DNA of 64,000 nucleotides from an uncultured Clostridia bacterium (GTDB lineage Bacteria; Bacillota; Clostridia; Christensenellales; UBA1242), in NCBI GenBank assembly GCA_934756675.1, contig CAKVLG010000002.1, forward strand, positions 339 through 64,338. Direction: 5' to 3'. Under the pieces are notes generated by a model that worked only from the letters and a program-made list of their open reading frames with translations, made no database searches and was not told where the DNA came from. Position numbers and translations under genes: made by a program. Positions 2,062 to 64,000 of this stretch are shown piece after piece. Position 1 is the first letter of the stretch. Each line of letters opens with the position of its first letter.

Positions 2062-2071
2062 ATACTCATAT

Positions 2072-2148
<77 letters not shown>

Positions 2149-2150
2149 AG

Positions 2151-22102: not shown

Positions 22103-22106
22103 TTTT

Positions 22107-34949: not shown

Positions 34950-35783
34950 TTAATTGTTCCAAATATCGTCAAAGGTTTTAAGCTTAGACTTTTTCATAAT
35001 TCCACCAACAATATTGCCACTTGTTTGTGGTGCAAGTTTATAAAATATGTTTAAAAATTTTGCATCAATACCAATTATTGCTCTTTTGCGTTTTTTTGCA
35101 ATGACTTTTACTATCTTTTTTGCCATTTTATTGAGTTTCATACAAAAATGGTCGATGAATTTTTGGTCGCAAGCTTCAATAATGTCTTTTTGATTGTCTT
35201 TGTTAACAAATAGATTTGTTTTTACAAAGCCTGGCATAATGGTGGAAACAAAAACTTTGTGATTGAGTTCCACGCTTAGTGTTTCGCTAAAAGTTTTTAG
35301 TGCAGATTTACTTGCGGCATATATCGAAACACCTGGCATGCACGACAGAGCACCAGCACTGCTAATATTGATGATTGCGGGCGAATTTGATTGTTTTAAA
35401 AGAGGTAAAAGTTCACGCATGCCATATGTTGCTGAGAAAAAGTTGGTAGCAAAAACCTGGGCGGTTTTTTCTTCGGTTGTGTGATAAAAATTATCGAATG
35501 GGGGCATTGTGCCGGCGTTGTTAATTAAAATATCAATTTTAAAGTCGCTTGAAATTAGGTAAGCATGTAAGTTTTTCCAGTTTTCGCTTTTGCTGACGTC
35601 CATTACATAATAACTGAAAAGTGGGGAATTAAGTTCGCTTGCAAAAGATTCTAGGTTTGCTTTTGTACGTGCAAGCCCTAAAACTTTGCAGTTGTATTTT
35701 TGTATAAGAATTTTTGTTATCTCTTTGCCAATTCCGCTAGAAGCGCCAGAAATGACAACATTTTTATTAAAAAGCCAGTTCAT
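34950..35783 (-). CDS. Short-chain dehydrogenase/reductase (SDR)
   Basis: ISGASSGIGKE, NNAG and YAASKSAL (YxxxK) motifs. Start set to the ATG at 35783 (SD GGAG), because the track extension runs into the tRNA gene. Confidence 0.82.
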   Translation of the reverse strand: MNWLFNKNVVISGASSGIGKEITKILIQKYNCKVLGLARTKANLESFASELNSPLFSYYVMDVSKSENWKNLHAYLISSDFKIDILINNAGTMPPFDNFYHTTEEKTAQVFATNFFSATYGMRELLPLLKQSNSPAIINISSAGALSCMPGVSIYAASKSALKTFSETLSVELNHKVFVSTIMPGFVKTNLFVNKDNQKDIIEACDQKFIDHFCMKLNKMAKKIVKVIAKKRKRAIIGIDAKFLNIFYKLAPQTSGNIVGGIMKKSKLKTFDDIWNN

Positions 35784-35831
35784 TTGCTTTTCTCCTAATA
35801 AAAAAACCACACCAGTTTTGGTGCGGCAATT

Positions 35832-35917
35832 TGGTGCGAGGGAAGAGACTCGAACTCTCACGACTGTTCATCACTCGCCCCTTAAACGAGCGCGTCTACC
35901 GGTTCCGCCACCCTCGC
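35832..35917 (-). tRNA. tRNA-Leu, anticodon reads AAG (type II, long variable arm)
   Basis: Hand fold. Acceptor GCGAGGG/CCCTCGC, D-arm GCG-GAACCGGTAGA-CGC, anticodon stem CTCGT/GCGAG with 7-nt loop TTAAGGG (U33, A34-A35-G36, G37), 14-nt variable arm, T-arm GAGAG-TTCGAGT-CTCTT, encoded CCA. Confidence 0.75.
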
Positions 35918-46911: not shown

Positions 46912-47003
46912 ATTGTTCCTTTTAATTGTAATAAAAAGCATAGTAGATTGTCAAGAAAATAAACATTTTAGGGAAGGGGAATACCCCCTTCTCTAATTGT
47001 TTA

Positions 47004-50000
47004 TTAGAACATGAATCCGTTACGAAGAGGACTGTTATTTGGCATAGAGTTAATAACTTTATCAGCAACCAAATAACAACCTGCAATAACAACACCAGCA
47101 ATACCAAATGTTACAACTGTTAAAATGGCAGAACCAGCGATTGCTACAACACCAATAGCACCAGAACCAACAGGCAAAGCTTGCCAACTACTGTTACCAT
47201 AGTAGATGTGCTGGTTACCATTGAGTGAAACATTAAGATCACAAGGAGATTCCGCTGTATTAAACGCTTCAACATCTGCCATGTAGTTAGCGTGGAACGA
47301 AAGTTCGTTTGCAATAGCACCGGTCTTTGACGTATCTGATGTAAAGATGTTACCCATGATTTCTGAGAAACCATAGTTCTTATCCATACGTGAAGCATCC
47401 AAGTGACCAGAAGTATCAACCGAGTGAGTGTCGAGTCTATTTCTAGTGCTAAATGATACGCATTTAACACTCTTTAGGTAAGAATAACCCTTGCTTGCCC
47501 ACCAGAGAATGTCGCCAACATGATCGATAGTAAAGTATGGTACAGGGAAGATGCCTACCATTTTAAAGTGCATTATAGGCATCCAAACCTCTTGCCATGC
47601 TTCGTTATATTGTGATCTCTTGTGAACTTTTATTGTTGCAGTAATATTAACTGAATCGTTAACAGTGTAGGTGAGATTGAGCATGTCGATATAGGAATCC
47701 ATGTAGCCTTTAATGTTAAGACCTGAATTAAAGTTACTACCACTATGTATTTGATTTTTTATTTCTTTATAGAATTGAATGATGTTGTATTGATCATATA
47801 CAAAGTAGTTATTAAGATCACTATCGTTTTTGAAGTTTGTACCAAACATGATATTGAAGAATGAGTAGAGGTTTTTAACATTCCTTATTCTTGTTTTACC
47901 AAGACTATTTTTGAAGCCAGCAAAGTTAACTTTTCCAGTTGAATGATATTCTGCCACTGGGTTAGTTGCATAGTTTGTGATGTATGTTAAAAGACCAGTC
48001 AAGAACAAATATGTTTGAGTATAAAGCGTTTCTAAGGTTTCGTTTGAATTATCGTATTTTTGTTCAATATTCCAGAATTCATTCCAACCAACCCAACCTT
48101 TATCACTAATAATATTAGTGTTATTTTGGAAGTAGGTTAGAAGTGAATTTTTGCAACCCTTAGATAGTTTTATATAATCGGTAGTTGTTGGATGTTCGGC
48201 ATTTGAATAATACTCATTTAGTAGATATTCAAGCGTATCAACAAATGGTTTAACATTTCGAACAACAGTGAAGTAATAGTTATCGAAGTTTGTCATTAAT
48301 ACGTCATACGATGAAATAAATTGTGCTGTACTCTTAAAGATATCTCTGCTAAATACAGGAATTTTGGCTGTTGTTTTGCCATCTTTTGTAACAGCGCCAT
48401 TGTATGTTTGAAGTGTTTTAAATGTTCCGTCCAAACTTCTATGGGTATCTTTGTCGGCATAATTGCCGTTTTCATAATCAACTCTGTTACCACCAGTTGA
48501 TTTATTTTCAGTTTCACCAGCACCAGAATAGGTGACAGATGAAGTGATTTGTTGAACTGTGTATAGGTAATTTAAGTTAACTATTAAATTAAGGTTCTTT
48601 GGAGCATCGTTTGTTTCACTTAGGTTTTGATAGAAACCAGTGATAAATGCCGTCGATGTTGTTAAGCTATTAAGGTCAGGTATATTTTTACCAGCTTTAT
48701 AGAACTCTTCGGCATAAAGTGTGTTGTGATCCATATCGTCTGCATAAAGTTCCATAACACCAGTTTGCGCACAATCTAGCACGCCTTCGTTTAGTTGATT
48801 TTGAACTTTGATGATAGGGAATGTACCATTTTCACTAATAAGAAGTATTTTTACTCTTATTGTTTTTGTTTCAAAGTCGACATAAAGTTTTACGCGTTTT
48901 TGCGCATCGTTGCCATACTCGTTGATATCTTTAATGTTGCTGTTAATACCAAGTTGAATTAGACCAGGTTTTAACATATATATCATGTTGTTAAATGAAC
49001 ATGTAAGCTTATTATCGAGATTAGAAGTATTGGCTGGCATTACGTAATTTAGCATTTGCGATAGCTGAGTATTACCATAGAACGATGTGATATTATACAC
49101 TTTTACTTGACCAGATGTAGATTTCGCATTGAACAAGCCGTCCTCGGTTTCGCTGTAAGCGACATAAGGAATAGAATTGCCATCAAGATCTTTTACTTTG
49201 TTACCGTTCTTGTAGAGAAGAACTTTGCTAGTTATGCTCTTTTCAAGGTCAAGGGCACCAAGAGGAATACGTGCTGGAACGATTAATTGATTACCATTTG
49301 TATCTTGTTTTGTGTATACATATGGGTTACCTTGTTTTGGATATCCACTTCCATCAAGATCGGTATTAGGTGTTATAGTAATTCTGTCTTCTCCATTCAT
49401 TATATAGCCGCGTTTAATTTGGTTAACTTTATCGGTGTATGCAATGAATGAGGTAGTGCTATTACTATCTGCACCATTGATTACCGAACCTTCCATTTCT
49501 GCAATTCTAAGTTCTACAACATATGTTTGAACGATATAGAACGCATTGATTGAAACGTCATCTTTGAGCCTATAGAGTTTTAGGTAGTTAACTTTGTTTA
49601 ACTTGCCTTCATCACCAATTTTAATAACTTTGTTATATAAGAATTTCGCGTCGTTTGTGTTATATAGCGTTGTGACTTCTTTAAGTGAAAAATCGTGACC
49701 AAGTGTTCCACTATACGTGCCGCTGTCAGTAGCGTAGTCACTGTTAAGATTTTCTTTTGCAAGTTTATCGAGTGTATTGTTGGAAGTCCAGCTGATTACA
49801 TTTATACCAACGCCTTTTGTATCGACAAGCTTGCGGTTATTCAAGAAGTCGTTACTTTTTGCGGTTAGGTAACCATTGTATCCAATGAAGTTGAAACCAG
49901 GGTAAGCTTCTACCTGAGAGTATGCGTTAGAACCAACTTCAACAATAAGTGTACCATGAACTGTACCGATGTTTACGTTGTTGTCATAAACTCTATCTGG

Positions 50001-53000
50001 TGGAAGAATAACAGGTTGGTCATTATCGTCCATCACCATCGAGCCGTCTGCTGCTTTTTGAATTTCAGCTTCAACGTTGCGTACTTCAACAACAACTGAT
50101 TTAGCTTCATAAAGAGCAACAACAATGCAATCGAATAATGGGTTAATTGTTATTGTGTAATCTGTTATAATGTCAGTATTTTCTTCTTTAACCTCATTAT
50201 AAAGCTTTCCGTCAATGCCCCTTACTTGGGTTAGGGTATAAAGTGTGTTTGCATAGTCAACTTTGCCAGTTGTTGAGTTAAGAACTTCATTGTTACTGAT
50301 GTTAGCTATATAGTTTGTGAGTGGCTTATAGTAACCATTGCTCAAATAGAAGAATCCTTTGAAGAATAAGTAGTCAATGTTTCTAGCTGTGAAGGTTACA
50401 GTTGTAGACATTTTTTCGAAGCCTTCAATGATATTTCCATCTACATCTTTAATTTGTTTGCCAGAATTGTGAGTAGAATTAGCTACTGTAACAAATTGAT
50501 TTTTCTTAATTAAATCTGTGTATGCGTTGTAAATTAAAGATTGTCTGTAGTCTAATTTTATGTTAGCTAGTGTACCATTTTTAACTTTGGCTGTGTTTAC
50601 AGTACTTGCATCATTTTCGCCAAGAGCTGCTAGTCGATCTCTTAGAGAAGGTTGTTCTTTGCCAGAAGAATCTTTGAACTTAGAATCTGTTGTACGCCAC
50701 TTGATGTTCTTTGTAATTTCGAGATTGTTGCCTTTCTCGTCTTTCAAGATTTTGAAGTAGTTTTCTTCTAAGTTCTTGGTTAGCATTGCCATATCGCTAA
50801 CTACTACGTGGTTGAAGTAGGTGATAAAGCTTGCGTTGTATGTATTGTTTTGTAGTGCTTTAGTATAATATTGAATTAATTTAGAAATTGTATCTTCTGT
50901 GTCGAACTTGCTGATGTATTCGTTTTCTTTATAGTATTCGTATGTGATTTTTTTACCACCAGGAAGTGCGAAAGCACTGATACCACTATAGATTTGCAAT
51001 TCTTCATTAGATTTATAATTTTTATCAATGATAATTTTTAATGTTCTTGCTTTTAAAATAATACTTAAAGTTGCATTGCCCCAAGAATCGTTTTCCAAAT
51101 CAGAATAGAGAGCATAACCAATAATAGTATTACCGTCGCCATCTACGACCATAATTTTAACAAAATCACTGCTAACTATTTTACCGAATAAGAGTTGAAT
51201 GTTAGTGCCTGCTGCAATTTCTGCAACAACATTACTGCTATTATCCGCTTTTTCATACACTTTCGTTATATTCTTTGTGGTTGCAACATGTTCAACTTGT
51301 TTTTTAGTAGCCGTTCTGAATGTCATACTAAAGTACTTGTATTGATATTCGCCATTTTCATATGAGAAAGCAGTGTAGTCATAAGCTTTTTGAGCTTTAT
51401 CGTCTTTGAATTCATAGCTGTAACCATGACGAGCAGTAGCAATTGTTACAAAGTATTCACGGTCACGTTCTTTGTTGAAGTCTGCAGATATCTTTGTGTG
51501 GTTTTCGAGCGTGTATTCGTGTTGATAGATGTACCAGTTGTCTTCACCATTTGTTGTGTTGATGAAATTGAGTATGTCTATCGAGTTAGAAAGTCCAGTT
51601 ACATCTTTACTTATTGCTTTTATAACAAGACCATTTGCTCTTATTGTAGAACGAACAATTGTACCAGGTTCGAAGTATGGGTATGAAACAATATCTTTCC
51701 AGCCATCAGCTGCTCTAACTTCAAGTGAAGATGTGTATGTGTTAGAGTCGCCAGCATTTGTGCCCTCTAGCGGATTAATTTCGTTACCAATTTCATAGAG
51801 TGAAGTAGTTCTAGCATAGATTGTTGTATCTGCCTTGATGTCTGCGGTGTTAAGAGTTAAGGTTTTGTTGTATCTTTGATCAGGTTGATATAATCTGTCA
51901 ATCTTGTCATTGTTGCCATTTACAAAGTATGTAAATCTCAATCTATTTCCTTCGCCAAGGTCAAGGTCATAAACTGTGCCATTAGTTAATACATTATTAT
52001 GACCTACAAATTTTTCTGAAATAGAAACCTTAAATTCAAATGATTGGTTAATAGGGTATCTAAATGTTAAAGATTCTTCGTCATACTTAATCTTTTTGCC
52101 ATCGATATCGCTAGCAACAAAATTGTTAGCATCGGTGTTCAAAATCGCACCATCTTCATATCTCATAGCTACATAAACAAGAACTGCGGCAAAGTTAGCA
52201 TACAATGTATAGTTCTTATTGTCAGGAGATGTACCTACATTTGTAGCATTGCCAGCATCTGTGTCTTCGTTAAATAACAAGCCATCAGAAAGAATAATTG
52301 AATCATTTGTTGTTAGATAAACAATGTTTTCCGCTGAAATATCACTGTTATTTGTATAGCCAAGAAGTTTGAAGTCTTTTAATCCGGTCTTATCTTCGAA
52401 TACTCTGACTGCGAGTATCTTTGATAAGTGGAATGTTTTTATTTCGAATACGATTTCGGTATTAGATCTAGCTGTAGAGTTAAGTGTAACAGTTTTATAT
52501 TCACCATAGCCACCGCTCTTCATTGTATATTCATCAATTTGAGCTTTGATATTGCTTGTGTCCAAATCAAACTCGTTATCGACATGAACAATAAGTTGAT
52601 ATGTAATAAATTTAGAATATTTTGTGAAGATTTGGTAAACGTCGAATGAATAATTAACAGCTATTGGAATAGTGAACAAGAGAGCCGAACCATTTATGTC
52701 GCGGTCAAGTCCGTTATATGTGTAAGAAACATATTCTTCAGACGCTGTGTCAAATATAGTTCTCATTGTAGAGCCTGCATTTGAAGAGTCTAAAATTTCT
52801 TTAATTTTGCTCTCGGTTACGTTGCCACTTGCAAGTAAGGTACTTGTAGTATGCATGTCAGCGCCGTTCCAAGTTGTCGATTTATCTCTGTCTGTCTCTG
52901 TGAAGTAATAGAAGTACTTTTCTTGTTTAGCATCAGATGAGTTAACAGGTTTTGATGTAAACGAAATGCTACCAATTCTTACAAAGTAAGGAATGATATA

Positions 53001-56000
53001 AATATCTTCGGTAGTTTTAAGTGTTGTTATTATTGAACTAATAGCGTTGTTTACTGAAGTCCCGAATGATGAGTTGTTATAGTTGTCTGCACTAAATATA
53101 TAAATTACATCATTTGATGAAGTCAGAAGTGAGTATGACCTTTCACTTTGCTTTCTTATCATTATGTGGCTAATAGCATAGCCTTCATTCGCTGTGATAT
53201 ATATTTTTGTGAGTATATCGCTATTTTTTACAGCACTTACAGAACCGTTGAGTTCGTTAGAATATTCGTTACCAACAATAACATTAAACTTATCGGCATA
53301 ATTAATTTCGATTGTGTTGTCTGCTATCGCTGCATCTCTTTGAATTAATTGATACATCGAAGAATAACGAATGTTATTTGTAGCATCTTTACCTTCTAGG
53401 TCTTTAAATTCTGTAAATAAGTAGGTTATTTCTTCGCCATTAACATTGATGTTTGTTAAGTGGTTATTTAGCGAGTCGCGTTTTGTTACAAAGAATGTGA
53501 TAATTCCATGTAAGTTAAGCGTAAACGTGATAGGTGAAGAACTGTTTAGCGTTACAACTGTTGAACTGTTATTGTCTTTTGTGAATAAGTTTTTGTAGAT
53601 AACAGTGTATTCAGCATTACCATTTAATGTAATTGTGTAGTTAACTGAAGAGTAAGTGTTTTCGGTACGTTCGAGATTTGTGTTAGATTTTACATTTGTT
53701 ACGGTAATGTCTGTATAAACATTGTCGACAAGTTTATATTTAACATCAAATGCAAAACGTACAATAGTGTTTTCATAAATTTTGTTATCGGTTGTAGATG
53801 ATTTAATTTCATCAAACTTAGTTACAGGAACAGCGTCGCTCTTATCGTTTGTGAAACCAGAGAACGTAGTTGAATCAATTGCGTAAGAACCAACTAACAT
53901 CGAAAATTTAATTATATTGTCTGAGCCTACAGAATAGTTAATATAACTTGAATACGAAGTAATTAATGAATTGATGTCATCTACACTATAGTAATAATTA
54001 TTTGTGGTGATATCAAATCTAAAGTTTTTGTTTGTAAGTTTACTATCATAAGATACTTTGTATTCTATGTTATAGATGCGAACAAACCTTGCCGTTGCGT
54101 TACTTACATCACGAGAAGTAAATGAATAGTTGTAGTTGTTCGAAAGTTTAACATAAGTCGATGGACGACTGCTGTTACGGATTTCTTGGTACCAACCAAT
54201 GAACTTGTATTCATTTGAGTTGTAAGTAAATTTGTTGTTACTTAGATTTGTTGGAGCTTTGCTTGCATCTAGAACCGTTGTGCCGGTGTGATCAATCAAT
54301 TCATATTTCTTCACTAAGTCGTAAGAATAGGTGGTTTTATCTCTGTATTTGAAAATAAATTTCAAATCGCGGTCGGCAACAAACGAATATGTATTGTTGT
54401 AGGTATATACAGATGTTGATGTAGAAGATTGTTCGCCATCATAAATGTAGTTGCCTTGGAATTTATATTCGCCAAGTTTATCATTAGCATTAAGTGTGAT
54501 ATATGTACCAAATGGAATGGTATATGTTTTAACTAAGACTTTTTGATTTGTGTCAAACTCTACGTTTTTGTCAATTGAATAATTTGTTACTTTATATTTA
54601 ATTTTTAAAGCATCTAAGTATTCGCTTGGTTTAATATAATCATCTACTTCTTGTTGAATGTTTGTATCATTAACAGCTAAACGGATTTCGATATTAATGT
54701 TTTTTGCATATCTAGCTTCGATTATCACATTTTTGTGTAAATCAGAATGATAGATTGTGTAAGTCAAAGTCAGGTTTTTGTTACCACTATTAGAAATATA
54801 AGTTCCGTTTACAAACCAACCAATAAAGTAGTATCCGCCAACATCTGTAGCAGTAGCTGTTATGTCGTAGTTAGTCTTATTGCTACTTGGGCCAAATTCT
54901 TTTTCTGTGTAGAAGTTTGTTACACCGTCAGGGATAATCTTGTCGTTGGCGTCGCAGGTGATAGTGATAGGATCAGAGGATACAATTGTTTCGTCACTAT
55001 AGTCGTTAATAAACTGGGTGACAGTGTTAATTGCATATTGTTTGTAATACCTTGCTTCATAGATAACAGCATTATTACCTGAATATTCTTCGTTAAGTAC
55101 GTCGGTAAATTGATAGTGATATGTGTCAGAAACTCGGATTGTTGTGTCACCGATAGTTCTGTACCAACCGTCGAAGTAATATCCGTCATACGATTCGGCA
55201 ACTAATAAAATCTTAGATTTTGCAGCGATTATAAAGTTTACAGACGACTTTGTTCCAAGAAGTTTTGGTTCGCTGTTCTTTATTACATCTGTTGCACTAG
55301 AGAATTTGTTATCTTTTGCAGATTCTAGTATTATAGATGAATAGTGAATTTTGAAGTTGTCGTTTGTTGAATCGCTATAATCAACGTTTCTTTTAACTGT
55401 GATGTTTCTTGTTGAAATATACTTAGCAACAGCTAGTGAAGAAACTTTGTCATGATAACTGAGTTGACGCATTGTGTAACTATATTCAGAAGCAGATGGG
55501 TTAGTTAGTTCGTTTGTTGTACTAACAAGTTCGCCATTGATGTACCAACCAATAAATGTATAACCAACCATTTTTCTAGCTACAAGTTTTGGCCCTTCGC
55601 CATTTGGCCCTTCGCCAGTTGTTGATAAGCTTTCGTAACGAATGTTGATTTGGTTTAATACTTGGTTTGACGTGTTTTTGTCTGCACCGTTGTATGTTAC
55701 AGATACAGGTTCTTGACCGTTCTGGTTATAAACTTCGTCAGTTTCTACGCTAACAGTCAAGTTATTAACTCCCACAAGTTTAACGTTAGTTGAGAAGTCG
55801 CCACGAACTATGTAATTTGTATATGTTTCTGTGTATTTGTCGTCAATTAGTGTTGTGAGCGACAATGGACGAAATTGACCATCAATATTTTCTACAGTCA
55901 TTCCAGCTTTAACTTTAAATGTAAACGACTTTTTATCTTTAAGTGCGTCAGAAATAATCATTTTGGTTTGTACGCCATACAAGTCGGTGTAGGTGACGAT

Positions 56001-59000
56001 GTATTTAAAGTTTTTATAGATGTCTTGAACTGACTTATCTTCGTTACGCAAGTTAATGTCAAAATAAATTTCGTAATTTTCATATTTTGTGTGAATACTA
56101 ATGAGTTTTGTGTTATCACTTGCTTTAATAGAATAACTCTTAGAATATGTGTAGAATGGGTCACTACTATTCGAGTTAGAATTAACTCTTGTACCAATGT
56201 AATAATTTTTATTGCTGTCAGGGTCTTGGAGTTTAGCGTTTACTATTGTTCCAGCAGGTACATATACACTGTCGTTAGCATTTAATGTTGCTGTTGTTGT
56301 CTTCCAATTTTCGCTGAGATATTTTAGTTTAAGAGCATTAGAAACTAAAGATAAAGAGTCGCCACTACCAGACAGTGTTGAAATATGTTGGATATTAACA
56401 GCTTTCACTAAGTCGAAAATAACTGTTGTATCTTCACTAACATTTTTAATTTCAACGTAATTATTTGTGTTCTGCAAAAGTTTATTGTTAACTTTTACAT
56501 ATACGCAGAAGTATTGTCTGTTGATAGTGAATGAAGGAACATAAAGTTTAACATTTGCACCCTTCACAAAATACAAAGTTTTGTTTTCTTTTTCTTTTTC
56601 GGTATTGTTTATAAAGTTGTTTACTTCAATGTTACTGTGATTATGAGAGTTATATGTAACACTTAAATTGAATCTTAGGTTCGTAGATGTGCCGTTGAGA
56701 TCGCGGTCGTCATATAGAAGGTCGGAAATGGTGAATTCGTAAGTGTCAGAATAATTAATTGTGATTGTTACATCGCTATTGATTGATTCTGTAGATTCAA
56801 TAGGCTTAAATTCTATGCGTTTATTCCAATCTTCTTTTGTAATGAAGTACTTGTCATCATTAGATTTCATAGTTCCAGTTTTACCACCAGTTAATGTTAA
56901 ACTTGTTGGGTAATAGTGGATGAGTGGGGTAACACCAAGTTCAAGTGTTGTGCCACGCATTTTGTAGATATCTGTGCCGATTGTTGCAATTGTTTCAATG
57001 TTATAAGTTCTGCTTTGACTATTATTTGTTCTTGCAATTGATGTATTAAATAAGTCGTAATAACCAGCGCCATTAAAGTTATCGGCATTTTTAATTGTAA
57101 CCTTATATGCTTTAACGAATTTTGCATAATAGCTTGTCGTTAAGTTATATATAGTTGCTTCGTTGTTGTTTGAAATAAAGTTATTGTCTTTATCGAACCA
57201 ACCAGCAAATATATACACTTTACCGCCCATTACAAATGACAAATTATCTAGATATAGTGAGCCAGTTGTTTCTACGCCGTTTGATGTACCAAAATAGAAT
57301 TCTGAGTTCTTTTCAGAACCGTCATCACGATATGAGCTACCATTATAAATAATTAATGAGCCGTTATTGTTGTGAGATGCTGCATTCTTATCGAACCACC
57401 TTATACCATTATAAGAAAGGTAAATGTTTGGAGCACTCGAATTATTAACTTTTGTAAGAGCGTTAGAATTGTAAGTTTCTGCTGTCTTAATGTTAATCTC
57501 TACGGTGTTTTGCGTTTCGATATATGCCTTTAAGTGATATAGCAAGTTGTCATCGCGGAGAGCAAACTTGTTATCGTCATTAAGGTAAGTAAACATTTTA
57601 TCATCGTTATCATTTGCATCATATTTATATTTAATTGCAAAGTTTACAAATCCACCTTTGGTTGTATGCAAACCGCTAATGGATGCGGTATCTTCGTCCA
57701 TGTAGTTATTGATATAGAATGCATGGAATTGAGTTGTAGTTGTGTTTTTAATCTTATATGAAATTGTAGGAGCTTCTGCATCTATATCGAAATAGCCAAA
57801 GAATGTTAGGTTGTTAGAAGCCAAAGAATGAACGATTTTACAATTTGTATCATCGAGAGCCGAAAGTTTGAATTGGTTTTTAGTAACAATTGTCTTCTTG
57901 CAGTCAACTGAAGTTAGGTAAGTTTTGTTATCACCAGCACGAGCAAATTTAACATCAACAGGGTACTCGTTTGAAGAGTCTATTGTGAAGTTTGCAATGT
58001 CTACATACACAGCAATAATTCGTTTCATACGAAGAGTGAAGTTGATGATTTTGTCGGTTGTTAATTCTTTATTGTTCTCGTATATGTTGAATTGTGTCAT
58101 GTCGAGTGTAACATGTGCAACATCGTTATATGCAAGATATGTTAAGTCGTTTTTAGTGTCACGGGTAATAAAACCGCCACCATCGTTCTTTTCAATCTCT
58201 TTGCCTTTGTAATCGAAGATTTGTTTACAATAGATTTCAAAGTCATTGTCGATTACGTTTTTGCCGTTTGCATCAACCATAACAGTACCATCGGCGTTGG
58301 CTTTGTATTTATCGAATAAGATACCACGCGATGTGTCAAACTCAAATCTAGCACCACCAGCAGGTGAAATTGTCATGTTGATTTGTTGGTCAGCAGCAAT
58401 TTTACCAGAGATTGTACCAATGTCACCATTTATTTCAACATTAAATGGAGTGCCATCGATCTGCGTGCAATTCATTGTAACGTTTACAAGTGACGCGTCA
58501 AATGTAAAGCTGATATTTTTAACCTTTTTGAATAGGGAAACAATGCTTGTGTCTGCGGTCATATGTGTTACATAAGGACGGTTCATGTCGGTAGACATCA
58601 ATACAAAGTCTGACCATTCACGAACAATCTTCTTTATGCCACCGCCAACATCAATCGTTTTTTCGTTACATTTTGCTTCGTACCAACCCATGAAGTAAAT
58701 ACCTTTGTCTTCAAGTTCTTTAAGGTAATCTTCCATGGTTCCATTTACAAGTAGACCTTCGAACAATACAAGTGTATTTTCAACCATCGAAAGGTCACCA
58801 GTTTGGGTGGTTATAGCGTTGCCACTACTATCTAGTGGACTATTAATTCCATATTTTTTGGTAAAGCTCATTTTACCAATATTGCTTGCATTTGGATAGA
58901 AAATTGGGGTAGATAAGTTTACTTCGTCTATACCATCAATGAATGTTTTTCCATTCATACCACCAGAGGTATAGATTGTACCTGAGAGTGATGGAGGATT

Positions 59001-62000
59001 TGGACCATATTGGGTTGCACCAGATTTATCTTCGCCTTCAATAACAACAGATTGAATATTAAGCATATATATTCTTAAACCTGTTAAGTTGAAGTAGTTG
59101 ATGAAACCACCAACAAATGGACCAACATATTTATAGTTTGTTATATGTGAGTTTCTGATAATGTATTTTACGCATTCATAGATTGCGTTCATATCAGAAA
59201 CCGCTCTTTTGCCAGGCTCAGGGTCAGCGATAGCTACACTGTTACTACCAAACAAGTCATTGATTTCTTCGTAACCTTCAGCTCTATTAGCTGGCTTGTA
59301 ACCTTTTACCACTTTTGTAGAAACACCAGCAACAAAGAATGCATGGTCGTTTTTAACTTGTTTGCTCAACTCTTGAAGGATAGCTTCGACTGAAGTATAG
59401 TTTGCAGTTGCCACTTGAACTTTGTTATAAGCTTCTTTTGTAATTCTATCACCAAGAACGCTACTTACTATTCTCCACTCTTTAAGGTTGAATGCACCTT
59501 TTGAAGCGTTGAGTGTGATGTAGTCAGAAACGTATTTGCCATTGTTATCGATAAGGTTAAAGTATTGTGAGTAGTATTCATATGTTTTAGCCTTACCAGC
59601 CATAATGTCAGAAACAATAGATTGTGCACGGTATGGGTGACGAACTAGGTGAGCGTTGTCGTTGTATGTTGTGTCCATTGCAACGTTTGTTTCTTGACGG
59701 TTGGCATCTGTACCAACGTTAATGTTTCTGTCGAATGTGATTTTAAAGATGTAATAGAAGAAGTCTACTTTGTCTTCAATAGAACCTTCTACGTTCTTTT
59801 TAACATATTCGTCTGTTGGACTGACGATAGGTTCAACGTTAAATTGAGTCGAACCATAGCCGAGCGTATGAATGTTAAACTCTTGACCACGTGCTACACG
59901 AACAATAAATATTGCTGTAGTGTTTGTGTCAAAGTACATGTTTTTGTTAACAAGGTCACCGTTTGATTCGTGAGAGATCCAATAAGTTGCACCATTAGAT
60001 GGGGCAATATGGTCGAGTAATGTACTATAAACATTTCCGCCGTGGTAGTTGCCAGCAATGTTAATTATGCTTTTGAGTTCAGCTTGTTTATCAGAGCCAC
60101 CAGAACTACGTGAGTTTTTGTTGTATAGGTATAATTTTTCGCCGTATGTGTTTATATTTTGAGTCGTTTTATCTGTGGCGGTTAAATCGTTACCATATTC
60201 GTCAGTACGAACAAATAGAGTAGAGCGGTCGTTGTTTATTGCGTCTGTGTTGTAGTAATAGATATCGAGAACTGTGATGCCAGATTCGGTATCAGAAGCT
60301 TCTGCCACAGTATTGAGCTTGTAGTTTTCGATGAATTTTGCAACAAAACGCATATTAGAGTGAAGTCTAGAAATTGTAATTGTGTTGCCGTCAACATAAA
60401 TATTTCCGTTTTCGCGGATACGGTAATATCTGTTAAACATTACACCATTTACATTATAAGACTTGTCTGGGCCTTTGAATGCAACAATATTATCGAAGTT
60501 TGTAATGCCACGACTTGTGTCTATTGCACTATAGCGTTTGTTATAAGCAGCTGTATCATTTTTAATGGTATAAGCACGGTCAGCAAGTTCATAGTAGGTG
60601 AGTGTATAAACATCAAGTGTTCTGCCACCACCAACAGGCTTTGTGAATTCTGCATCGTAGTAATATTCGCCATACAATGAGTTTTCATAAACTTGAACAT
60701 ATCGGTTGTTTTGATTTATGAATGTTCCACGAACTTTGTTTAGCATATTATTTGGAACAATTGCTTCTTTGTTATGGTCTTTGTCGTAATAGAATTTAGG
60801 GTAAACATATTCACCGTTAACTACTTCAACTTTGCCCTTAGAGAAAGTTGTGATGTAGTAATATTTATCTTCTGCACTGTTGTAAATAGCAGGGATATAT
60901 TCATCTGTATAAGTACTTGTAGCATCTGTTAATTTTTTATTGTCTAGAATCCATGTGCCAGATTTTTCGTCGTAGTGTGCCATGTACCAACCTTCGAAAC
61001 GGTAACCATAGTCTGGTGATGCAGTCATGATTACGCGAGTGTCGCGGTCGAAGTATGCGCTCTTGTATTTAAGCAATGTGTTAATATTGCCGTCTGCATC
61101 TTGATATAATTCACCAGCGAGCAAGTTATTTACATTGTTAGAATAATAACCGTCGCCACTTAAAACTGACTTGATTGTTGGAACAAATGTAAATGTCTTA
61201 TCGAATGCACCAGCAAACATGTCGCCTTTTTTAATGTCAGCTACTGATAAACGTTTAGATTGATAAGCTGAAGCTATTGTTTGTATCGAAACAGAGTAGA
61301 GTTTGTTTGATGTGTAATCAAGATAGGCAAACATGCCAACAGAATTTAAGTTATTTTCAATGTTTTGCTGAACAGAGTCTGTTAAGAAGTTTGTGTTATA
61401 ACTATATGAAAGATACTTAGATGTTTCACTACTTGTGTCGGTATAATAGAAAGTTTTTGTAGTGCTAATTTCGCTGTATGAATATGGAGAGTATCCAGTT
61501 GTTTCGTTATATGTGGCAGTTCTCGAAATCGTTTGATAACGTAATTTGTAACCAAGAGATGTTATCTCTATAGGGAGAACCCAAACGTCGTTTGTGAAAG
61601 TATAGTTACTACCGCTCTTATTAACAATTGGAGCAGAGTCGTTTGTGTCGCTATTTAACAACATTAAGTTTTCATTGTTTACAATATTGAAACTGTTGCC
61701 GTCATAATAGAAGTAAAGATAAGAGTTACCAGTGTCAACTTTGAATATCGTGTAATGGTCTTTATAAGCAAATTGTGGTTCATAAACCCAACGAGTTGGA
61801 TGGTTGTTTTCATCATAGTTTGTAGCAACCCAACCAGATTCAGACATGCTAGTAAGTCCAGGGAAGACAACATATGGTGTAACTTCGATTTCAGAATAGA
61901 AGTAACCATATTTGTTACCAAATTGTGTCTTGTAATATTCGAAGACATACATTTGGTAATCTCTTTGTGTGTCTGCGTTAATACTTTGACCATTCTTAAA

Positions 62001-64000
62001 TCTGTATGTAACATTACCACCAAGGTTATTAGAACCGTCGATGATTTGTGTACCAGCAGAGATTGTTAATACACGTTCGTAAACTGGCATGCACAAGTAA
62101 TAACCAGCATATTTTGATTCGAATTGAAGAACTGCGCCAGTGTTAGCGTAGTTGCCATTAGCATCGTAAGTTAATTCGTTATTTAGATAGATAATTTCGC
62201 TGTTATATCTTGTGTAGATCATCCAGTGAGAGAATCTATAGATAAAGTTTTGTGAGTAATTGTCTGAATTTGTGCGGACAATTGGTGTTGCAATAAGCAT
62301 GGCAGTTTCTTTTCCACTAATAAAGAATGGGTCGCTGCTGTCGTATGCGTTGATTGCAGAGATACGGTCAAATGGCCAATAGCCAAGCATATCTTTTGAT
62401 GATGTGTTGAATGCAATGTTTGCTCTATATACGTTTACCACACCAGCAATCAACACTCTTGAATAATCGTAAACACCAGAAGAATAGGTAGTAGAACCTG
62501 CTGCAATACCTTCTAGTCCTTTGCAGACCGTGTTGTCGTCTGTGTAATCACCAGATGTAAAGTAAAGTGTACCATCTTTACCTTGTTCATAAGCATGAAT
62601 ATCATAGATAGGCAAGTCTTCCATTTTGTTCTCATTCGATTGCCAAATAATTGCATTATCTTGAGTGAGCTTAACAAGCATGTCAGAGCCCTTGTAATTA
62701 ATCATGTAATAAACAAGCTTGTTGTATTTACCAGTTGATGTTTTGCTATCGTTAAAGTAAATATTGTTATCACCTTCGTTAATACCAACACTTTGAATGT
62801 TAAGTGGTGCACCACCGTTATACATTGCAAAGTATTGATAAGATGAATCCATATACCTTTCGGTTTCTGGAAGTGAGTTATATGTTGCTTTATCAACTTG
62901 ATAGTACGCAACGATTGATTTAAATGAAGACTTTTCGATTACATAATATACATTATCAATATAATCATTATTCATAAGGTTGGTCAACGTATCGCGGAAT
63001 GTATATGATGAGAAGTCTAAGATTAAGTCAGAATCGTTTGTCTTTATTTTTGTACCAAGAACTTCAACATAATAAGCTGGTTCAATGCGAAGTGAAAGGT
63101 TAATAATTGCTTCTTCTGTTGCTAAGTGTCTTACAGAATAATAGAGAACAGGGTTAGGGTAAGGTGGGCCATCAAGCAATGATACACCAGGCATACCTTC
63201 GATAACTGAATTTTTTTGCGTGTAGTCAAGTGAATAATAGTGGTTGAAAGCACCGTCAACAGCACCAATTGTGTTGCTGCTATGAATGTCGTTGATTTGG
63301 CTAACTTGATTGCCGTTATCACGTATATACTTAATTAGGTCAGTGAACGTTGGGTAATATTGAGCGTTCTTTGGGTCGTTTGTTGCAATATATTTACCAA
63401 GAACAGTGATAAGCGATTGATCAGAAAGCATAGCAGTTCTAGTTAATAAATTGCTTGAATTTTCTTGTTCATAAACATTTCTTGTTGCTTTGACTGTGTA
63501 CATTACACCAGCATCGCGAAGGATAGTGTAGTATGTAGAGTCTTTAAAGTAGCAAAGTTTTCCGTCGTATATAACAGCGTCTACTGTTTTGCTACCAATA
63601 GTAGCTTTAAGTGTAAGCGTCCCAGCGGTAGCGTCATAACTTTCCTCAACAGTAAGAGTGAAACTTGAGCCGCTTAAACCAAGAACTTTAAACAGTTTAG
63701 CTTCGTCACTTTTCTCACCAGCGGATTTGAGTGTTGTGGTGTAAGTATTTACTATCCTATTGTAATAATATGAATCTTTGAAGTTAAGACCATATCTAAT
63801 AGGGAACACTCTTGTTGATTCGTCGCTCCCTTTTTGGAAAGCTTGAACAACATTAATAACTGAATTATCTGTAGATTTTGTAATTGTGAATGACAATTTT
63901 TGATTGTAATGGATTTCTTCCATCAAATATTGTTCAAAGAGTGCAAGGACAGAGTTGAGGTCGGCATTGTCACTTAATAGTGGCAATATATTTTTGCCTT
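47004..64000 (-). CDS. Giant surface protein of more than 5660 aa (5' end outside the window) with at least 7 InlB B / Flg_new-type repeats, an internal SH3b-like module and a C-terminal glycine-zipper hydrophobic anchor
   Basis: One uninterrupted frame of about 17 kb. The track start codon (63984-63986) is TTG and the frame stays open to nt 64000. [FY]-x-G-W-[YF] repeats lie between about 54.1 and 61.0 kb. The protein ends ...GSGAIGVVAIAGSAILTVVTFGIAGVVIAGCYLV.... Confidence 0.85.
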   Translation of the reverse strand, partial: GKNILPLLSDNADLNSVLALFEQYLMEEIHYNQKLSFTITKSTDNSVINVVQAFQKGSDESTRVFPIRYGLNFKDSYYYNRIVNTYTTTLKSAGEKSDEAKLFKVLGLSGSSFTLTVEESYDATAGTLTLKATIGSKTVDAVIYDGKLCYFKDSTYYTILRDAGVMYTVKATRNVYEQENSSNLLTRTAMLSDQSLITVLGKYIATNDPKNAQYYPTFTDLIKYIRDNGNQVSQINDIHSSNTIGAVDGAFNHYYSLDYTQKNSVIEGMPGVSLLDGPPYPNPVLYYSVRHLATEEAIINLSLRIEPAYYVEVLGTKIKTNDSDLILDFSSYTFRDTLTNLMNNDYIDNVYYVIEKSSFKSIVAYYQVDKATYNSLPETERYMDSSYQYFAMYNGGAPLNIQSVGINEGDNNIYFNDSKTSTGKYNKLVYYMINYKGSDMLVKLTQDNAIIWQSNENKMEDLPIYDIHAYEQGKDGTLYFTSGDYTDDNTVCKGLEGIAAGSTTYSSGVYDYSRVLIAGVVNVYRANIAFNTSSKDMLGYWPFDRISAINAYDSSDPFFISGKETAMLIATPIVRTNSDNYSQNFIYRFSHWMIYTRYNSEIIYLNNELTYDANGNYANTGAVLQFESKYAGYYLCMPVYERVLTISAGTQIIDGSNNLGGNVTYRFKNGQSINADTQRDYQMYVFEYYKTQFGNKYGYFYSEIEVTPYVVFPGLTSMSESGWVATNYDENNHPTRWVYEPQFAYKDHYTIFKVDTGNSYLYFYYDGNSFNIVNNENLMLLNSDTNDSAPIVNKSGSNYTFTNDVWVLPIEITSLGYKLRYQTISRTATYNETTGYSPYSYSEISTTKTFYYTDTSSETSKYLSYSYNTNFLTDSVQQNIENNLNSVGMFAYLDYTSNKLYSVSIQTIASAYQSKRLSVADIKKGDMFAGAFDKTFTFVPTIKSVLSGDGYYSNNVNNLLAGELYQDADGNINTLLKYKSAYFDRDTRVIMTASPDYGYRFEGWYMAHYDEKSGTWILDNKKLTDATSTYTDEYIPAIYNSAEDKYYYITTFSKGKVEVVNGEYVYPKFYYDKDHNKEAIVPNNMLNKVRGTFINQNNRYVQVYENSLYGEYYYDAEFTKPVGGGRTLDVYTLTYYELADRAYTIKNDTAAYNKRYSAIDTSRGITNFDNIVAFKGPDKSYNVNGVMFNRYYRIRENGNIYVDGNTITISRLHSNMRFVAKFIENYKLNTVAEASDTESGITVLDIYYYNTDAINNDRSTLFVRTDEYGNDLTATDKTTQNINTYGEKLYLYNKNSRSSGGSDKQAELKSIINIAGNYHGGNVYSTLLDHIAPSNGATYWISHESNGDLVNKNMYFDTNTTAIFIVRVARGQEFNIHTLGYGSTQFNVEPIVSPTDEYVKKNVEGSIEDKVDFFYYIFKITFDRNINVGTDANRQETNVAMDTTYNDNAHLVRHPYRAQSIVSDIMAGKAKTYEYYSQYFNLIDNNGKYVSDYITLNASKGAFNLKEWRIVSSVLGDRITKEAYNKVQVATANYTSVEAILQELSKQVKNDHAFFVAGVSTKVVKGYKPANRAEGYEEINDLFGSNSVAIADPEPGKRAVSDMNAIYECVKYIIRNSHITNYKYVGPFVGGFINYFNLTGLRIYMLNIQSVVIEGEDKSGATQYGPNPPSLSGTIYTSGGMNGKTFIDGIDEVNLSTPIFYPNASNIGKMSFTKKYGINSPLDSSGNAITTQTGDLSMVENTLVLFEGLLVNGTMEDYLKELEDKGIYFMGWYEAKCNEKTIDVGGGIKKIVREWSDFVLMSTDMNRPYVTHMTADTSIVSLFKKVKNISFTFDASLVNVTMNCTQIDGTPFNVEINGDIGTISGKIAADQQINMTISPAGGARFEFDTSRGILFDKYKANADGTVMVDANGKNVIDNDFEIYCKQIFDYKGKEIEKNDGGGFITRDTKNDLTYLAYNDVAHVTLDMTQFNIYENNKELTTDKIINFTLRMKRIIAVYVDIANFTIDSSNEYPVDVKFARAGDNKTYLTSVDCKKTIVTKNQFKLSALDDTNCKIVHSLASNNLTFFGYFDIDAEAPTISYKIKNTTTTQFHAFYINNYMDEDTASISGLHTTKGGFVNFAIKYKYDANDNDDKMFTYLNDDNKFALRDDNLLYHLKAYIETQNTVEINIKTAETYNSNALTKVNNSSAPNIYLSYNGIRWFDKNAASHNNNGSLIIYNGSSYRDDGSEKNSEFYFGTSNGVETTGSLYLDNLSFVMGGKVYIFAGWFDKDNNFISNNNEATIYNLTTSYYAKFVKAYKVTIKNADNFNGAGYYDLFNTSIARTNNSQSRTYNIETIATIGTDIYKMRGTTLELGVTPLIHYYPTSLTLTGGKTGTMKSNDDKYFITKEDWNKRIEFKPIESTESINSDVTITINYSDTYEFTISDLLYDDRDLNGTSTNLRFNLSVTYNSHNHSNIEVNNFINNTEKEKENKTLYFVKGANVKLYVPSFTINRQYFCVYVKVNNKLLQNTNNYVEIKNVSEDTTVIFDLVKAVNIQHISTLSGSGDSLSLVSNALKLKYLSENWKTTTATLNANDSVYVPAGTIVNAKLQDPDSNKNYYIGTRVNSNSNSSDPFYTYSKSYSIKASDNTKLISIHTKYENYEIYFDINLRNEDKSVQDIYKNFKYIVTYTDLYGVQTKMIISDALKDKKSFTFKVKAGMTVENIDGQFRPLSLTTLIDDKYTETYTNYIVRGDFSTNVKLVGVNNLTVSVETDEVYNQNGQEPVSVTYNGADKNTSNQVLNQINIRYESLSTTGEGPNGEGPKLVARKMVGYTFIGWYINGELVSTTNELTNPSASEYSYTMRQLSYHDKVSSLAVAKYISTRNITVKRNVDYSDSTNDNFKIHYSSIILESAKDNKFSSATDVIKNSEPKLLGTKSSVNFIIAAKSKILLVAESYDGYYFDGWYRTIGDTTIRVSDTYHYQFTDVLNEEYSGNNAVIYEARYYKQYAINTVTQFINDYSDETIVSSDPITITCDANDKIIPDGVTNFYTEKEFGPSSNKTNYDITATATDVGGYYFIGWFVNGTYISNSGNKNLTLTYTIYHSDLHKNVIIEARYAKNINIEIRLAVNDTNIQQEVDDYIKPSEYLDALKIKYKVTNYSIDKNVEFDTNQKVLVKTYTIPFGTYITLNANDKLGEYKFQGNYIYDGEQSSTSTSVYTYNNTYSFVADRDLKFIFKYRDKTTYSYDLVKKYELIDHTGTTVLDASKAPTNLSNNKFTYNSNEYKFIGWYQEIRNSSRPSTYVKLSNNYNYSFTSRDVSNATARFVRIYNIEYKVSYDSKLTNKNFRFDITTNNYYYSVDDINSLITSYSSYINYSVGSDNIIKFSMLVGSYAIDSTTFSGFTNDKSDAVPVTKFDEIKSSTTDNKIYENTIVRFAFDVKYKLVDNVYTDITVTNVKSNTNLERTENTYSSVNYTITLNGNAEYTVIYKNLFTKDNNSSTVVTLNSSSPITFTLNLHGIITFFVTKRDSLNNHLTNINVNGEEITYLFTEFKDLEGKDATNNIRYSSMYQLIQRDAAIADNTIEINYADKFNVIVGNEYSNELNGSVSAVKNSDILTKIYITANEGYAISHIMIRKQSERSYSLLTSSNDVIYIFSADNYNNSSFGTSVNNAISSIITTLKTTEDIYIIPYFVRIGSISFTSKPVNSSDAKQEKYFYYFTETDRDKSTTWNGADMHTTSTLLASGNVTESKIKEILDSSNAGSTMRTIFDTASEEYVSYTYNGLDRDINGSALLFTIPIAVNYSFDVYQIFTKYSKFITYQLIVHVDNEFDLDTSNIKAQIDEYTMKSGGYGEYKTVTLNSTARSNTEIVFEIKTFHLSKILAVRVFEDKTGLKDFKLLGYTNNSDISAENIVYLTTNDSIILSDGLLFNEDTDAGNATNVGTSPDNKNYTLYANFAAVLVYVAMRYEDGAILNTDANNFVASDIDGKKIKYDEESLTFRYPINQSFEFKVSISEKFVGHNNVLTNGTVYDLDLGEGNRLRFTYFVNGNNDKIDRLYQPDQRYNKTLTLNTADIKADTTIYARTTSLYEIGNEINPLEGTNAGDSNTYTSSLEVRAADGWKDIVSYPYFEPGTIVRSTIRANGLVIKAISKDVTGLSNSIDILNFINTTNGEDNWYIYQHEYTLENHTKISADFNKERDREYFVTIATARHGYSYEFKDDKAQKAYDYTAFSYENGEYQYKYFSMTFRTATKKQVEHVATTKNITKVYEKADNSSNVVAEIAAGTNIQLLFGKIVSSDFVKIMVVDGDGNTIIGYALYSDLENDSWGNATLSIILKARTLKIIIDKNYKSNEELQIYSGISAFALPGGKKITYEYYKENEYISKFDTEDTISKLIQYYTKALQNNTYNASFITYFNHVVVSDMAMLTKNLEENYFKILKDEKGNNLEITKNIKWRTTDSKFKDSSGKEQPSLRDRLAALGENDASTVNTAKVKNGTLANIKLDYRQSLIYNAYTDLIKKNQFVTVANSTHNSGKQIKDVDGNIIEGFEKMSTTVTFTARNIDYLFFKGFFYLSNGYYKPLTNYIANISNNEVLNSTTGKVDYANTLYTLTQVRGIDGKLYNEVKEENTDIITDYTITINPLFDCIVVALYEAKSVVVEVRNVEAEIQKAADGSMVMDDNDQPVILPPDRVYDNNVNIGTVHGTLIVEVGSNAYSQVEAYPGFNFIGYNGYLTAKSNDFLNNRKLVDTKGVGINVISWTSNNTLDKLAKENLNSDYATDSGTYSGTLGHDFSLKEVTTLYNTNDAKFLYNKVIKIGDEGKLNKVNYLKLYRLKDDVSINAFYIVQTYVVELRIAEMEGSVINGADSNSTTSFIAYTDKVNQIKRGYIMNGEDRITITPNTDLDGSGYPKQGNPYVYTKQDTNGNQLIVPARIPLGALDLEKSITSKVLLYKNGNKVKDLDGNSIPYVAYSETEDGLFNAKSTSGQVKVYNITSFYGNTQLSQMLNYVMPANTSNLDNKLTCSFNNMIYMLKPGLIQLGINSNIKDINEYGNDAQKRVKLYVDFETKTIRVKILLISENGTFPIIKVQNQLNEGVLDCAQTGVMELYADDMDHNTLYAEEFYKAGKNIPDLNSLTTSTAFITGFYQNLSETNDAPKNLNLIVNLNYLYTVQQITSSVTYSGAGETENKSTGGNRVDYENGNYADKDTHRSLDGTFKTLQTYNGAVTKDGKTTAKIPVFSRDIFKSTAQFISSYDVLMTNFDNYYFTVVRNVKPFVDTLEYLLNEYYSNAEHPTTTDYIKLSKGCKNSLLTYFQNNTNIISDKGWVGWNEFWNIEQKYDNSNETLETLYTQTYLFLTGLLTYITNYATNPVAEYHSTGKVNFAGFKNSLGKTRIRNVKNLYSFFNIMFGTNFKNDSDLNNYFVYDQYNIIQFYKEIKNQIHSGSNFNSGLNIKGYMDSYIDMLNLTYTVNDSVNITATIKVHKRSQYNEAWQEVWMPIMHFKMVGIFPVPYFTIDHVGDILWWASKGYSYLKSVKCVSFSTRNRLDTHSVDTSGHLDASRMDKNYGFSEIMGNIFTSDTSKTGAIANELSFHANYMADVEAFNTAESPCDLNVSLNGNQHIYYGNSSWQALPVGSGAIGVVAIAGSAILTVVTFGIAGVVIAGCYLVADKVINSMPNNSPLRNGFMF

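Follow-up and report, generated by a model that had tools for sequence, protein, structure and literature searches.

A 64,000-nucleotide (nt) stretch of contig CAKVLG010000002.1 from an uncultured Clostridia bacterium (hereafter the window, meaning the whole stretch that we analysed) carries at its right-hand end most of a giant gene on the minus strand, followed downstream by a smaller gene for a protein with an SH3_3 domain (the partner). Two relatives of the giant, P0001 and P0003, are encoded at loci from other metagenomes (L161 and L163). The giant, whose product is probably a fast-diversifying surface protein, is divided as follows (aa, amino acids of the fragment in the window).

47004-64000, minus strand: 3′ part of the giant coding sequence, 5,664 sense codons, colinear with P0001 and P0003
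61839-63281, minus strand: most conserved core of the family (aa ~240-720), three-way identity about 0.5-0.6
59499-61121, minus strand: second conserved region (aa ~960-1500), containing GW module 1, with 50% and 46% identity to the orthologues (alignment A3)
49299-59498, minus strand: fast-evolving, non-repetitive body (aa ~1500-4900), three-way identity about 0.1-0.25
47181-49190, minus strand: membrane-proximal C-terminal module (aa ~4937-5606), moderately conserved
47052-47180, minus strand: putative Gly/Ala-rich hydrophobic anchor (aa 5607-5649), ~40 aa here and 56-57 aa in the orthologues
47007-47051, minus strand: C-terminal tail with the motif PNN[ST]xLRxxFxF, here PNNSPLRNGFMF (nt 47007-47042)

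The preliminary description of this DNA had reported a single stop-free frame reaching from the window edge to 47004, and translation bore this out. Read in register with its stop, the minus strand between 47004 and 63998 yielded 5,664 residues and one stop, the terminal one (TAA at 47004-47006, with a second TAA directly after it); the first full codon is 63998-63996. The mechanically called open reading frame (ORF) starts at a TTG at 63986; no stop interrupts the four in-frame codons (G-K-N-I) that precede this TTG, which leaves the frame open where the window ends. Over the same 17 kb, each of the other five frames contains 260-676 stops, with longest open stretches of 49-153 codons; the length of the giant frame cannot be due to chance. 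Relative synonymous codon usage in the giant correlated with that in eight housekeeping genes of the window at r=0.88, compared with 0.38 and 0.44 for two shifted frames. Taken together, the stop counts of the other frames and the match in codon usage indicate that the giant is a real, native coding sequence. We rejected TGA recoding for the giant because it has no in-frame TGA, all of its Trp codons (34 out of 34) are TGG, and the housekeeping genes are full length under code 11. Stop usage in the 32 ORFs of the window was 24 TAA, 8 TAG and 0 TGA, and the corresponding counts were 14/4/0 in L161 and 11/1/1 in L163, which suggests strong TGA avoidance in the lineage; recoding is not indicated, given that the housekeeping genes have their full length.

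An exhaustive HMMER search with the C-terminal 1,200 aa of the giant against 1.84 billion representatives returned two matches, P0001 (6,800 aa; E=7e-106) and P0002, a 236-aa fragment whose 90% cluster also holds the full-length, 7,144-aa P0003. The P0001 match was produced by query residues 473-1181 (giant aa 4937-5645). Giant aa 185-4212 aligned with P0001 residues 1692-5543 at 34% identity over 4,200 columns, and aa 4382-5664 aligned with P0001 residues 5581-6800 at 28% identity. P0003 was likewise colinear with the giant, and the span colinear with both orthologues covers about 5,300 of the 5,664 residues. The first ~175 residues of the fragment were too diverged for reliable placement on the orthologues (6,800 and 7,144 aa), at about residue 1,500-1,700 of which the fragment starts. 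By this colinearity about 1,500-1,700 residues are missing from the fragment, so that the full length would be about 7,200-7,350 aa. The earlier expectation that the real N-terminus lies beyond nt 64000 and that the protein exceeds 5660 aa thus held, because longer orthologues align colinearly. The gene for P0001 lies on an ENA scaffold of 94 kb and, in identical form, on a Logan contig; that for P0003 lies on an ENA scaffold of 35 kb. What the window contains is the 3′ four-fifths of a single, genuine gene of the chromosome.

Word-seeded searches with giant aa 1-1200, 1201-3500 and 3401-5664 gave no match. The exhaustive search proved these nulls to be false negatives, so we did not count them toward orphan status. 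Over 5.8 billion clusters, word seeding missed three times a colinear, 34%-identical orthologue with which the query has many 5-8-mers exactly in common. When a query is long and biased in composition, a null from such a search is no proof of orphan status. Scans of genomes, metagenomes and IMG/VR with the giant found nothing, the window-specific 8-mer patterns used there excluding near-identical relatives only. Nothing was found by tblastn with conserved regions of the giant in phage and plasmid collections, and 160 loci from scans for PolA in genomes and metagenomes contained neither a giant relative nor a frame of at least 1,500 aa. The family is very small, with three members found, a claim of rarity that is limited by the coverage of the exhaustive search (the C-terminal 1,200 aa only).

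Conservation is distributed unevenly along the giant. In the core at aa ~240-720, which is 57% and 55% identical to the two orthologues (alignment A1), neither a known domain nor a conserved motif of catalytic type is present. When P0001 and P0003 are compared with each other, conservation is higher in the N-terminal ~3,400 aa (45-81%), and residues 3,400-5,800 are the most variable (about 30%); the last ~700-1,000 aa of the giant are moderately conserved. Compared with L161, the window showed identities of 34% for the giant and 40% for the partner, against 60.6% for PolA and 71% for DegV. Between L161 and L163 the identities were 38% for the giant and 45% for the partner, against 76% for a phage-type portal protein, 82% for a terminase and 85% for DegV. 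Judged by these comparisons, giant and partner are inherited vertically in place but diverge much faster than their neighbours.

As had been described from the letters alone, the fragment is rich in N, Y, T and S (N 10.0%, T 9.3%, S 8.1%, Y 8.0%), and the family as a whole is acidic, Cys-poor, N/T/S/Y-rich and essentially non-repetitive. Seven [FY]xGW[YF] signatures had been listed as marks of Listeria-Bacteroides (Flg_new) repeats. The giant contains exactly seven such motifs, precisely those listed, at aa 1001, 1769, 2264, 2815, 2942, 3058 and 3266, whereas 2,000 shuffles gave an expectation of 0.02 and a maximum of 2. They lie in seven modules, here called GW modules (pLDDT, predicted local distance difference test).

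60846-61082, minus strand: GW module 1, InlB-B-repeat-like (aa 973-1051), RFEGWY
58503-58793, minus strand: GW module 2 (aa 1736-1832), YFMGWY
57090-57287, minus strand: GW module 3 (aa 2238-2303), FAGWF
55392-55652, minus strand: GW module 4 (aa 2783-2869), FIGWY
55020-55259, minus strand: GW module 5 (aa 2914-2993), FDGWY
54681-54893, minus strand: GW module 6 (aa 3036-3106), FIGWF; AlphaFold2 (AF2) model with pLDDT 85
54057-54287, minus strand: GW module 7 (aa 3238-3314), FIGWY

A profile built from the seven segments (one iteration) recovered exactly seven modules in the window giant and seven positional counterparts in each orthologue, with the common signature [FY]xGW[YF] ... A[KR][FY]. 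Pfam scans of both halves of the giant gave, apart from sub-threshold matches, only PF18998 (Flg_new_2) at aa 981-1006, with 24.3 bits against a gathering score of 23.6. We aligned 21 GW copies, comprising 20 from the three giants and one from a 2,284-aa ORF elsewhere in the window. At a cut-off of E<0.1, Flg_new_2 was matched by 6 out of 21 copies (best E=1.3e-6) and Flg_new (PF09479) by 4 out of 21 (best E=9.5e-8); one match of a single copy to Choline_bind_1 (E=0.088) was noise. AF2 on the 21-copy alignment, run for module 6 (71 aa), produced four strands with a pLDDT of 85 and a predicted template modelling score of 0.68. By signature and profile matches, the modules are genuine but divergent InlB-B-repeat-type units. 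The earlier assignment stood insofar as the signatures mark Flg_new- or Flg_new_2-type modules, but these account for ~557 of the 5,664 residues, roughly 10% of the fragment, and so do not characterise the protein.

The remainder of the giant had no match in Pfam, NCBIfam, PDB, PHROGs or PADLOC. NCBIfam scans of both halves gave no match, Pfam and NCBIfam scans of 650-aa pieces at E<=5 gave only noise, and PDB sequence searches with single sequences and three-sequence profiles were empty. Those Pfam and NCBIfam scans, including the 650-aa pieces, contained no S-layer-homology (SLH), choline-binding or catalytic family, and together with a motif scan they agree with the earlier statement that catalytic, LPXTG, SLH and choline-binding motifs are absent. 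By profile search, the giant is not an ordinary member of a characterised adhesin family. BLASTP of the giant against itself yielded no off-diagonal match at E<=1e-3, and the same was true of both orthologues. Searches of the giant with window-wise hidden Markov models and all-versus-all hhalign (36 three-sequence profiles, 630 pairs) linked only the GW-module regions; a long tandem array of homologous stalk domains was not found by BLASTP, profile-sequence comparison or hhalign. Because the repeat searches link only GW regions, ~90% of this ~7,000-aa protein is unique sequence. It differs chiefly in this lack of repeats from the giant surface proteins described so far, all of them built as repeat arrays.

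All three giants share one ending, in which W-x-A-[LV]-P-V-G is followed by the Gly/Ala-rich hydrophobic stretch and the PNN[ST]xLRxxFxF tail. The hydrophobic stretch could form one or two membrane spans. The tail after it (15 aa in the window giant, 15-19 aa across the family) is conserved and non-basic, and among all sequence examined its motif occurs solely at the three C-termini. An LPXTG-like [LIS]Px[TSA][GNSA] motif occurs nowhere in the giant, and curated sorting-signal models (NCBIfam ‘-CTERM’ type) gave noise on the termini of all three giants (E>=0.013, well short of the cut-offs). The proposal of a C-terminal membrane anchor in place of a wall-sorting signal was upheld, given that the hydrophobic stretch is conserved in the orthologues and that LPXTG is absent. 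At their N-termini, P0001 and P0003 (the latter with a called start that is 17 codons too short) have a K-rich n-region (M..KKSNKFKRLL), an h-region and LTFGG-C, that is, a lipoprotein-type signal. The giants contain 0.25-0.32% Cys, compared with 0.6-2.8% for cytoplasmic proteins of the window, and the net charge of the family ranges from -120 to -325. No conserved HExxH, GxSxG or CxxC motif was present in the family; the three-way invariant residues include only 2 Cys but 20 of the 34 Trp. The low Cys content, negative charge, N/T/S/Y richness, orthologue signal peptide, InlB-B-type modules and lack of a catalytic motif together point to an exported, non-enzymatic protein with a structural or binding role.

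The region directly 3′ of the giant, and the one segment of the giant related to it, contain the following features (TM, transmembrane).

46968-46996, no strand assigned: intrinsic-terminator-like hairpin, 12 bp and GC-rich, directly past the giant stop, with a T-rich tract on the minus strand
46925-46954, minus strand: sigma-70-type promoter-like site of the partner, TTGACA-18-TACAAT, 11 of 12 positions
45094-46911, minus strand: partner gene, 605 aa from the ATG at 46911, with an AAAGGA ribosome-binding site and syntenic orthologues in L161 and L163
nt ~45205-45375, minus strand: SH3_3 domain of the partner (Pfam PF08239)
nt ~45106-45195, minus strand: C-terminal TM segment of the partner, with a basic tail after it
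50856-51362, minus strand: insertion in the giant of the window lineage (aa 4213-4381), without counterpart in P0001 or P0003

From the TAATAA of the giant, the order is hairpin, promoter-like site, AAAGGA and the ATG of the partner at 46911. L161 and L163 are arranged like the window, with the giant followed by an SH3_3/TM protein of ~600 aa and then by ABC, DegV and PolA genes. The partner consists of a signal peptide, ~480 aa of unrecognised fold, the SH3_3 domain, a C-terminal TM segment and a basic tail. SH3_3 scored 27.0 bits in the window, 52.8 bits in L161 and 31.5 bits in L163, reaching the cut-off of 27 in all three, and an exact look-up of the partner protein returned no record. The core of the insertion in the giant (aa 4239-4306, nt 51081-51284) shares 48.5% identity over 68 aa with the SH3b domain of the partner (E=2e-13), which is the sole paralogous link within the window. 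Of the three partners, that of the window is the one nearest to this segment, and the alignment extends to the ...DSW junction preceding the partner TM segment. Pfam SH3_3 did not match the insertion directly; the Pfam match lies in the partner, so the insertion is SH3b-like by transitive homology only. The simplest reading would be that, in this lineage only, the 3′ end of the partner gene was copied into the giant.

We favour, at a probability of roughly 0.6, the explanation that the giant is a rapidly diversifying, membrane-tethered surface fibre or adhesin-like envelope protein of ~7,200-7,350 aa that works with its SH3b partner. Such a protein would be exported through Sec by the lipoprotein-type signal peptide (visible in the orthologues only) and would be retained at the cytoplasmic membrane by its C-terminal hydrophobic segment, possibly with an N-terminal lipid as well. 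It would display a very long, mostly beta-rich, non-enzymatic ectodomain, whose extended length would be of the order of 200-300 nm if it is built from ~100-aa modules, and would serve as a binding or adhesive fibre or as a coat. The conserved N-terminal part, with the core at aa 240-720, may be the working part, probably in binding, carried on a body that would diversify rapidly under pressure from hosts, phages or competitors. The co-conserved SH3b membrane partner, whose gene lies downstream, would link the whole assembly to the wall or envelope, and in the window lineage its SH3b module may have been copied into the giant itself.

Several observations weigh against this explanation. No adhesive or ligand-binding domain was found in the giant in Pfam, NCBIfam or PDB, including searches with three-sequence profiles. 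AF2 on the core, run with a three-sequence alignment, gave an unusable model (pLDDT 30.5), and Foldseek of the module-6 model against PDB gave a best E of 0.45 and nothing at E<=0.001; the picture of a beta-rich modular fibre would thus be drawn from composition and the model of a single 71-aa module. For the window’s own giant, the N-terminus and signal peptide lie outside the window. If the lipobox is used, both ends would be tethered to the membrane, a poor fit to an adhesin built as a stalk with a distal tip, and the varying length of the hydrophobic stretch (40 aa in the window, 56-57 aa in the orthologues) would be compatible with more than one topology. In the partner, the SH3b domain directly abuts the TM segment, and wall binding by SH3b is assumed from the family name. 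The giant family may also be larger than three members.

The same features bear on the other explanations. Adhesion has a serious, if unlikely, competitor in a structural role in the envelope, with the giant as a lipid- and TM-tethered coat, corset or spore/exosporium-type protein that would give the cell its shape or protect it. Possible tethering at both ends, through the orthologue lipobox and the C-terminal anchor, would suit a coat, as would the strongly conserved N-terminal half, the association with an SH3b protein and the lack of a recognisable ligand-binding tip. Against it stand the very fast divergence of the central body, a behaviour more often seen in antigenic surfaces or surfaces exposed for interaction, the InlB-B-repeat/Flg_new modules, which typify host-associated adhesin-like proteins, and the lack of SLH or S-layer families in the giant. 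A more speculative and rather doubtful reading is that the giant represents an undescribed way of building and mounting giant envelope proteins, with ~7,000 unique residues tethered by an N-terminal lipid and a C-terminal Gly/Ala hairpin. The tail would then be a new sorting or recognition motif, perhaps read by the SH3b domain of the partner, and the two genes would form a two-component surface system.

An origin from a prophage or phage-derived element, with the giant acting, for example, in superinfection exclusion, as a receptor-masking protein or as a giant fibre, seems improbable. L161 and L163 do carry genes for an SU10-like major capsid protein, a P22/SU10 portal, TerL, a TerS-like protein and a phrog_36/sigma-like protein directly 5′ of the giant, but these lie on the opposite strand and read away from it, and the window’s own upstream region lies outside the 64 kb. 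Neither giant nor partner matches a PHROG family, no relative was found in 50,697 phage genomes or, in a scan able to exclude near-identical relatives, in IMG/VR, chromosomal DegV, PolA and ABC genes occupy the 3′ side of the giant in all three lineages, and a sigma-A-like extended -10 promoter before the giant is common to L161 and L163. Contact-dependent or polymorphic toxin delivery, with the glycine-zipper-like C-terminus as a membrane-inserting effector and the downstream gene as immunity or helper factor, would draw on the very large size and secretion of the protein, the GxxxG-like spacing in its Gly/Ala-rich C-terminal segment and the membrane protein, supposedly small, encoded directly downstream. 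We consider this very improbable, as the C-terminus is conserved and not polymorphic in the three members, no toxin, Rhs, LXG, DUF4176-level or PADLOC match was obtained (neither giant nor partner matched PADLOC), and the downstream gene encodes an exported SH3b protein of 600 aa and not a small immunity protein of the cytoplasmic or integral kind. A chimeric or mis-assembled contig, or genes fused through sequencing errors, is scarcely credible. The assembly appears to be of metagenome type, the 5′ end of the frame is missing, and giant ORFs are often sensitive to assembly; however, two independent orthologues follow the frame colinearly through about 5,300 of its 5,664 residues, codon usage is uniform and native, the flanking synteny is conserved, and the 6,800-aa orthologous frame was recovered by two pipelines (ENA and Logan). 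The concern raised earlier about repeat-driven mis-assembly falls away because, apart from the seven short modules, there are no detectable repeats to mislead an assembler, and the recovery of the P0001 frame by both pipelines adds to this.

Several known kinds of protein come closest to the giant. Staphylococcal Ebh and Embp are giant Gram-positive surface proteins that use a C-terminal membrane span instead of a sortase signal and contain many FIVAR/GA-type helical repeats. Set against this general description, the giant differs in that FIVAR/GA-type families were undetected in it and its composition points to beta structure. With the InlB B-repeat/Flg_new_2 (PF18998) and Flg_new (PF09479) families it shares the signature, although its copies are divergent, as the low matching rates above indicate. 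Gut Clostridia giants with Listeria-Bacteroides repeats reach 10,000-30,000 aa, and proteins of as many as 85,804 aa have been reported elsewhere (West-Roberts et al., bioRxiv 10.1101/2023.11.21.568195). The placement of the present protein among the very largest bacterial proteins was therefore too strong; its size is large, not record-breaking. In common with the Clostridia Flg_new giants it has a gut-type Clostridia-like host, a predicted extracellular location, Flg_new-type modules and a presumed role in cell-surface binding, but those proteins are dominated by repeated domains, whereas in the ~7,000 aa of the present giant the modules make up ~10% and the rest is unique. Giant1-5 of Apilactobacillus kunkeei are proteins of 3,000-8,000 aa with a Sec signal, about 10% Asn and long arrays of imperfect repeats (PMC12863079). 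The two groups share this size range, the Sec signal, about 10% Asn, a narrow distribution, rapid diversification, an SH3b-like wall-binding element and the lack of LPXTG, but no sequence similarity was detected between the present family and Giant1-5. The A. kunkeei proteins end in DUF5776/SH3b-like domains, whereas the present family ends in a hydrophobic anchor and conserved tail, is free of repeats and has its SH3b domain in a separate partner gene, with an internal copy in the window lineage only. Giant surface proteins are usually explained as amplified repeat arrays, which the present protein does not fit. With no recognisable domains over ~90% of ~7,000 aa and two detectable relatives, it raises the question of how such a gene originates and is maintained. 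The ~480-aa core, the anchor-plus-tail motif at the C-terminus and the obligate-looking SH3b partner offer handles on the surface biology of an uncultured gut Clostridia-like lineage.

The host is an uncultured, cell-walled, low-GC, gut-type Clostridia-like member of the Bacillota. The window has a GC content of about 34% and encodes MurG, a GalU-type nucleotidyltransferase, thymidine kinase (Tdk), DapA, GyrB/GyrA-type subunits, SSB, GltX, an ABC exporter, DegV and PolA; the only RNA families found in it were tRNAs. The best PolA identities were 44% among 185,579 species genomes and 42% among JGI metagenomes, all from uncultured gut Clostridia-type metagenome-assembled genomes; closer relatives may have escaped the patterns used in these scans.

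Orphan envelope proteins seem to be plentiful in this genome. Another large orphan ORF (25368-32222, plus strand; 2,284 aa), whose start is overlapped by an ORF at 24368-25381 (plus strand), has an N-terminal TM or signal segment. Its sole Pfam-type feature is a Flg_new-like module near the C-terminus (aa ~1922-1975, sub-threshold at 25.1 bits), and it shows no other similarity to the giant. At 2955-6626 (plus strand) lies a 1,223-aa protein with no Pfam match and a lipoprotein-type signal (…LFFAAC), and at 12276-14192 (plus strand) a 638-aa protein with no Pfam match and one internal TM segment. Three consecutive, slightly overlapping ORFs of 207, 229 and 228 aa at 21497-23430 (minus strand), which have no Pfam match and adjoin a tandem-GNAT protein at 20494-21405, might be paralogous to each other. 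A 384-aa protein at 33488-34642 (plus strand) matched the mTERF family in two stretches (59.7 bits against a threshold of 23.1); mTERF proteins are known mainly from eukaryotic organelles and are unusual in a bacterium. ARAGORN called a tRNA-Leu(aag) at 35832-35917 (minus strand) that overlaps the 5′ end of an SDR ORF (34950-35861), while Rfam was silent there at its gathering score; the call is probably a false positive, or else the start of the SDR ORF was miscalled.

The GC skew of the plus strand is positive throughout the window (1-64000), and most genes lie on that strand, with giant and partner on the minus strand. If the skew marks the leading strand, the giant gene of more than 17 kb would be transcribed head-on to replication. 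Upstream of the giants of the orthologues (L161:9777-10000 and L163:7375-7785) are a GC-rich hairpin, an extended -10-like TG(C/A)TAAAAT and a conserved AT-rich leader that contains …TAGTGTTATATATAAAGTATTATATATA…, which together suggest a conserved promoter and 5′ untranslated region. On the strand opposite to the giant, the phage head-packaging module directly 5′ of it occupies L161:1-9776 and L163:1-7374. It is 76-87% identical between the two loci, about the level of DegV, and could be a conserved or domesticated prophage.

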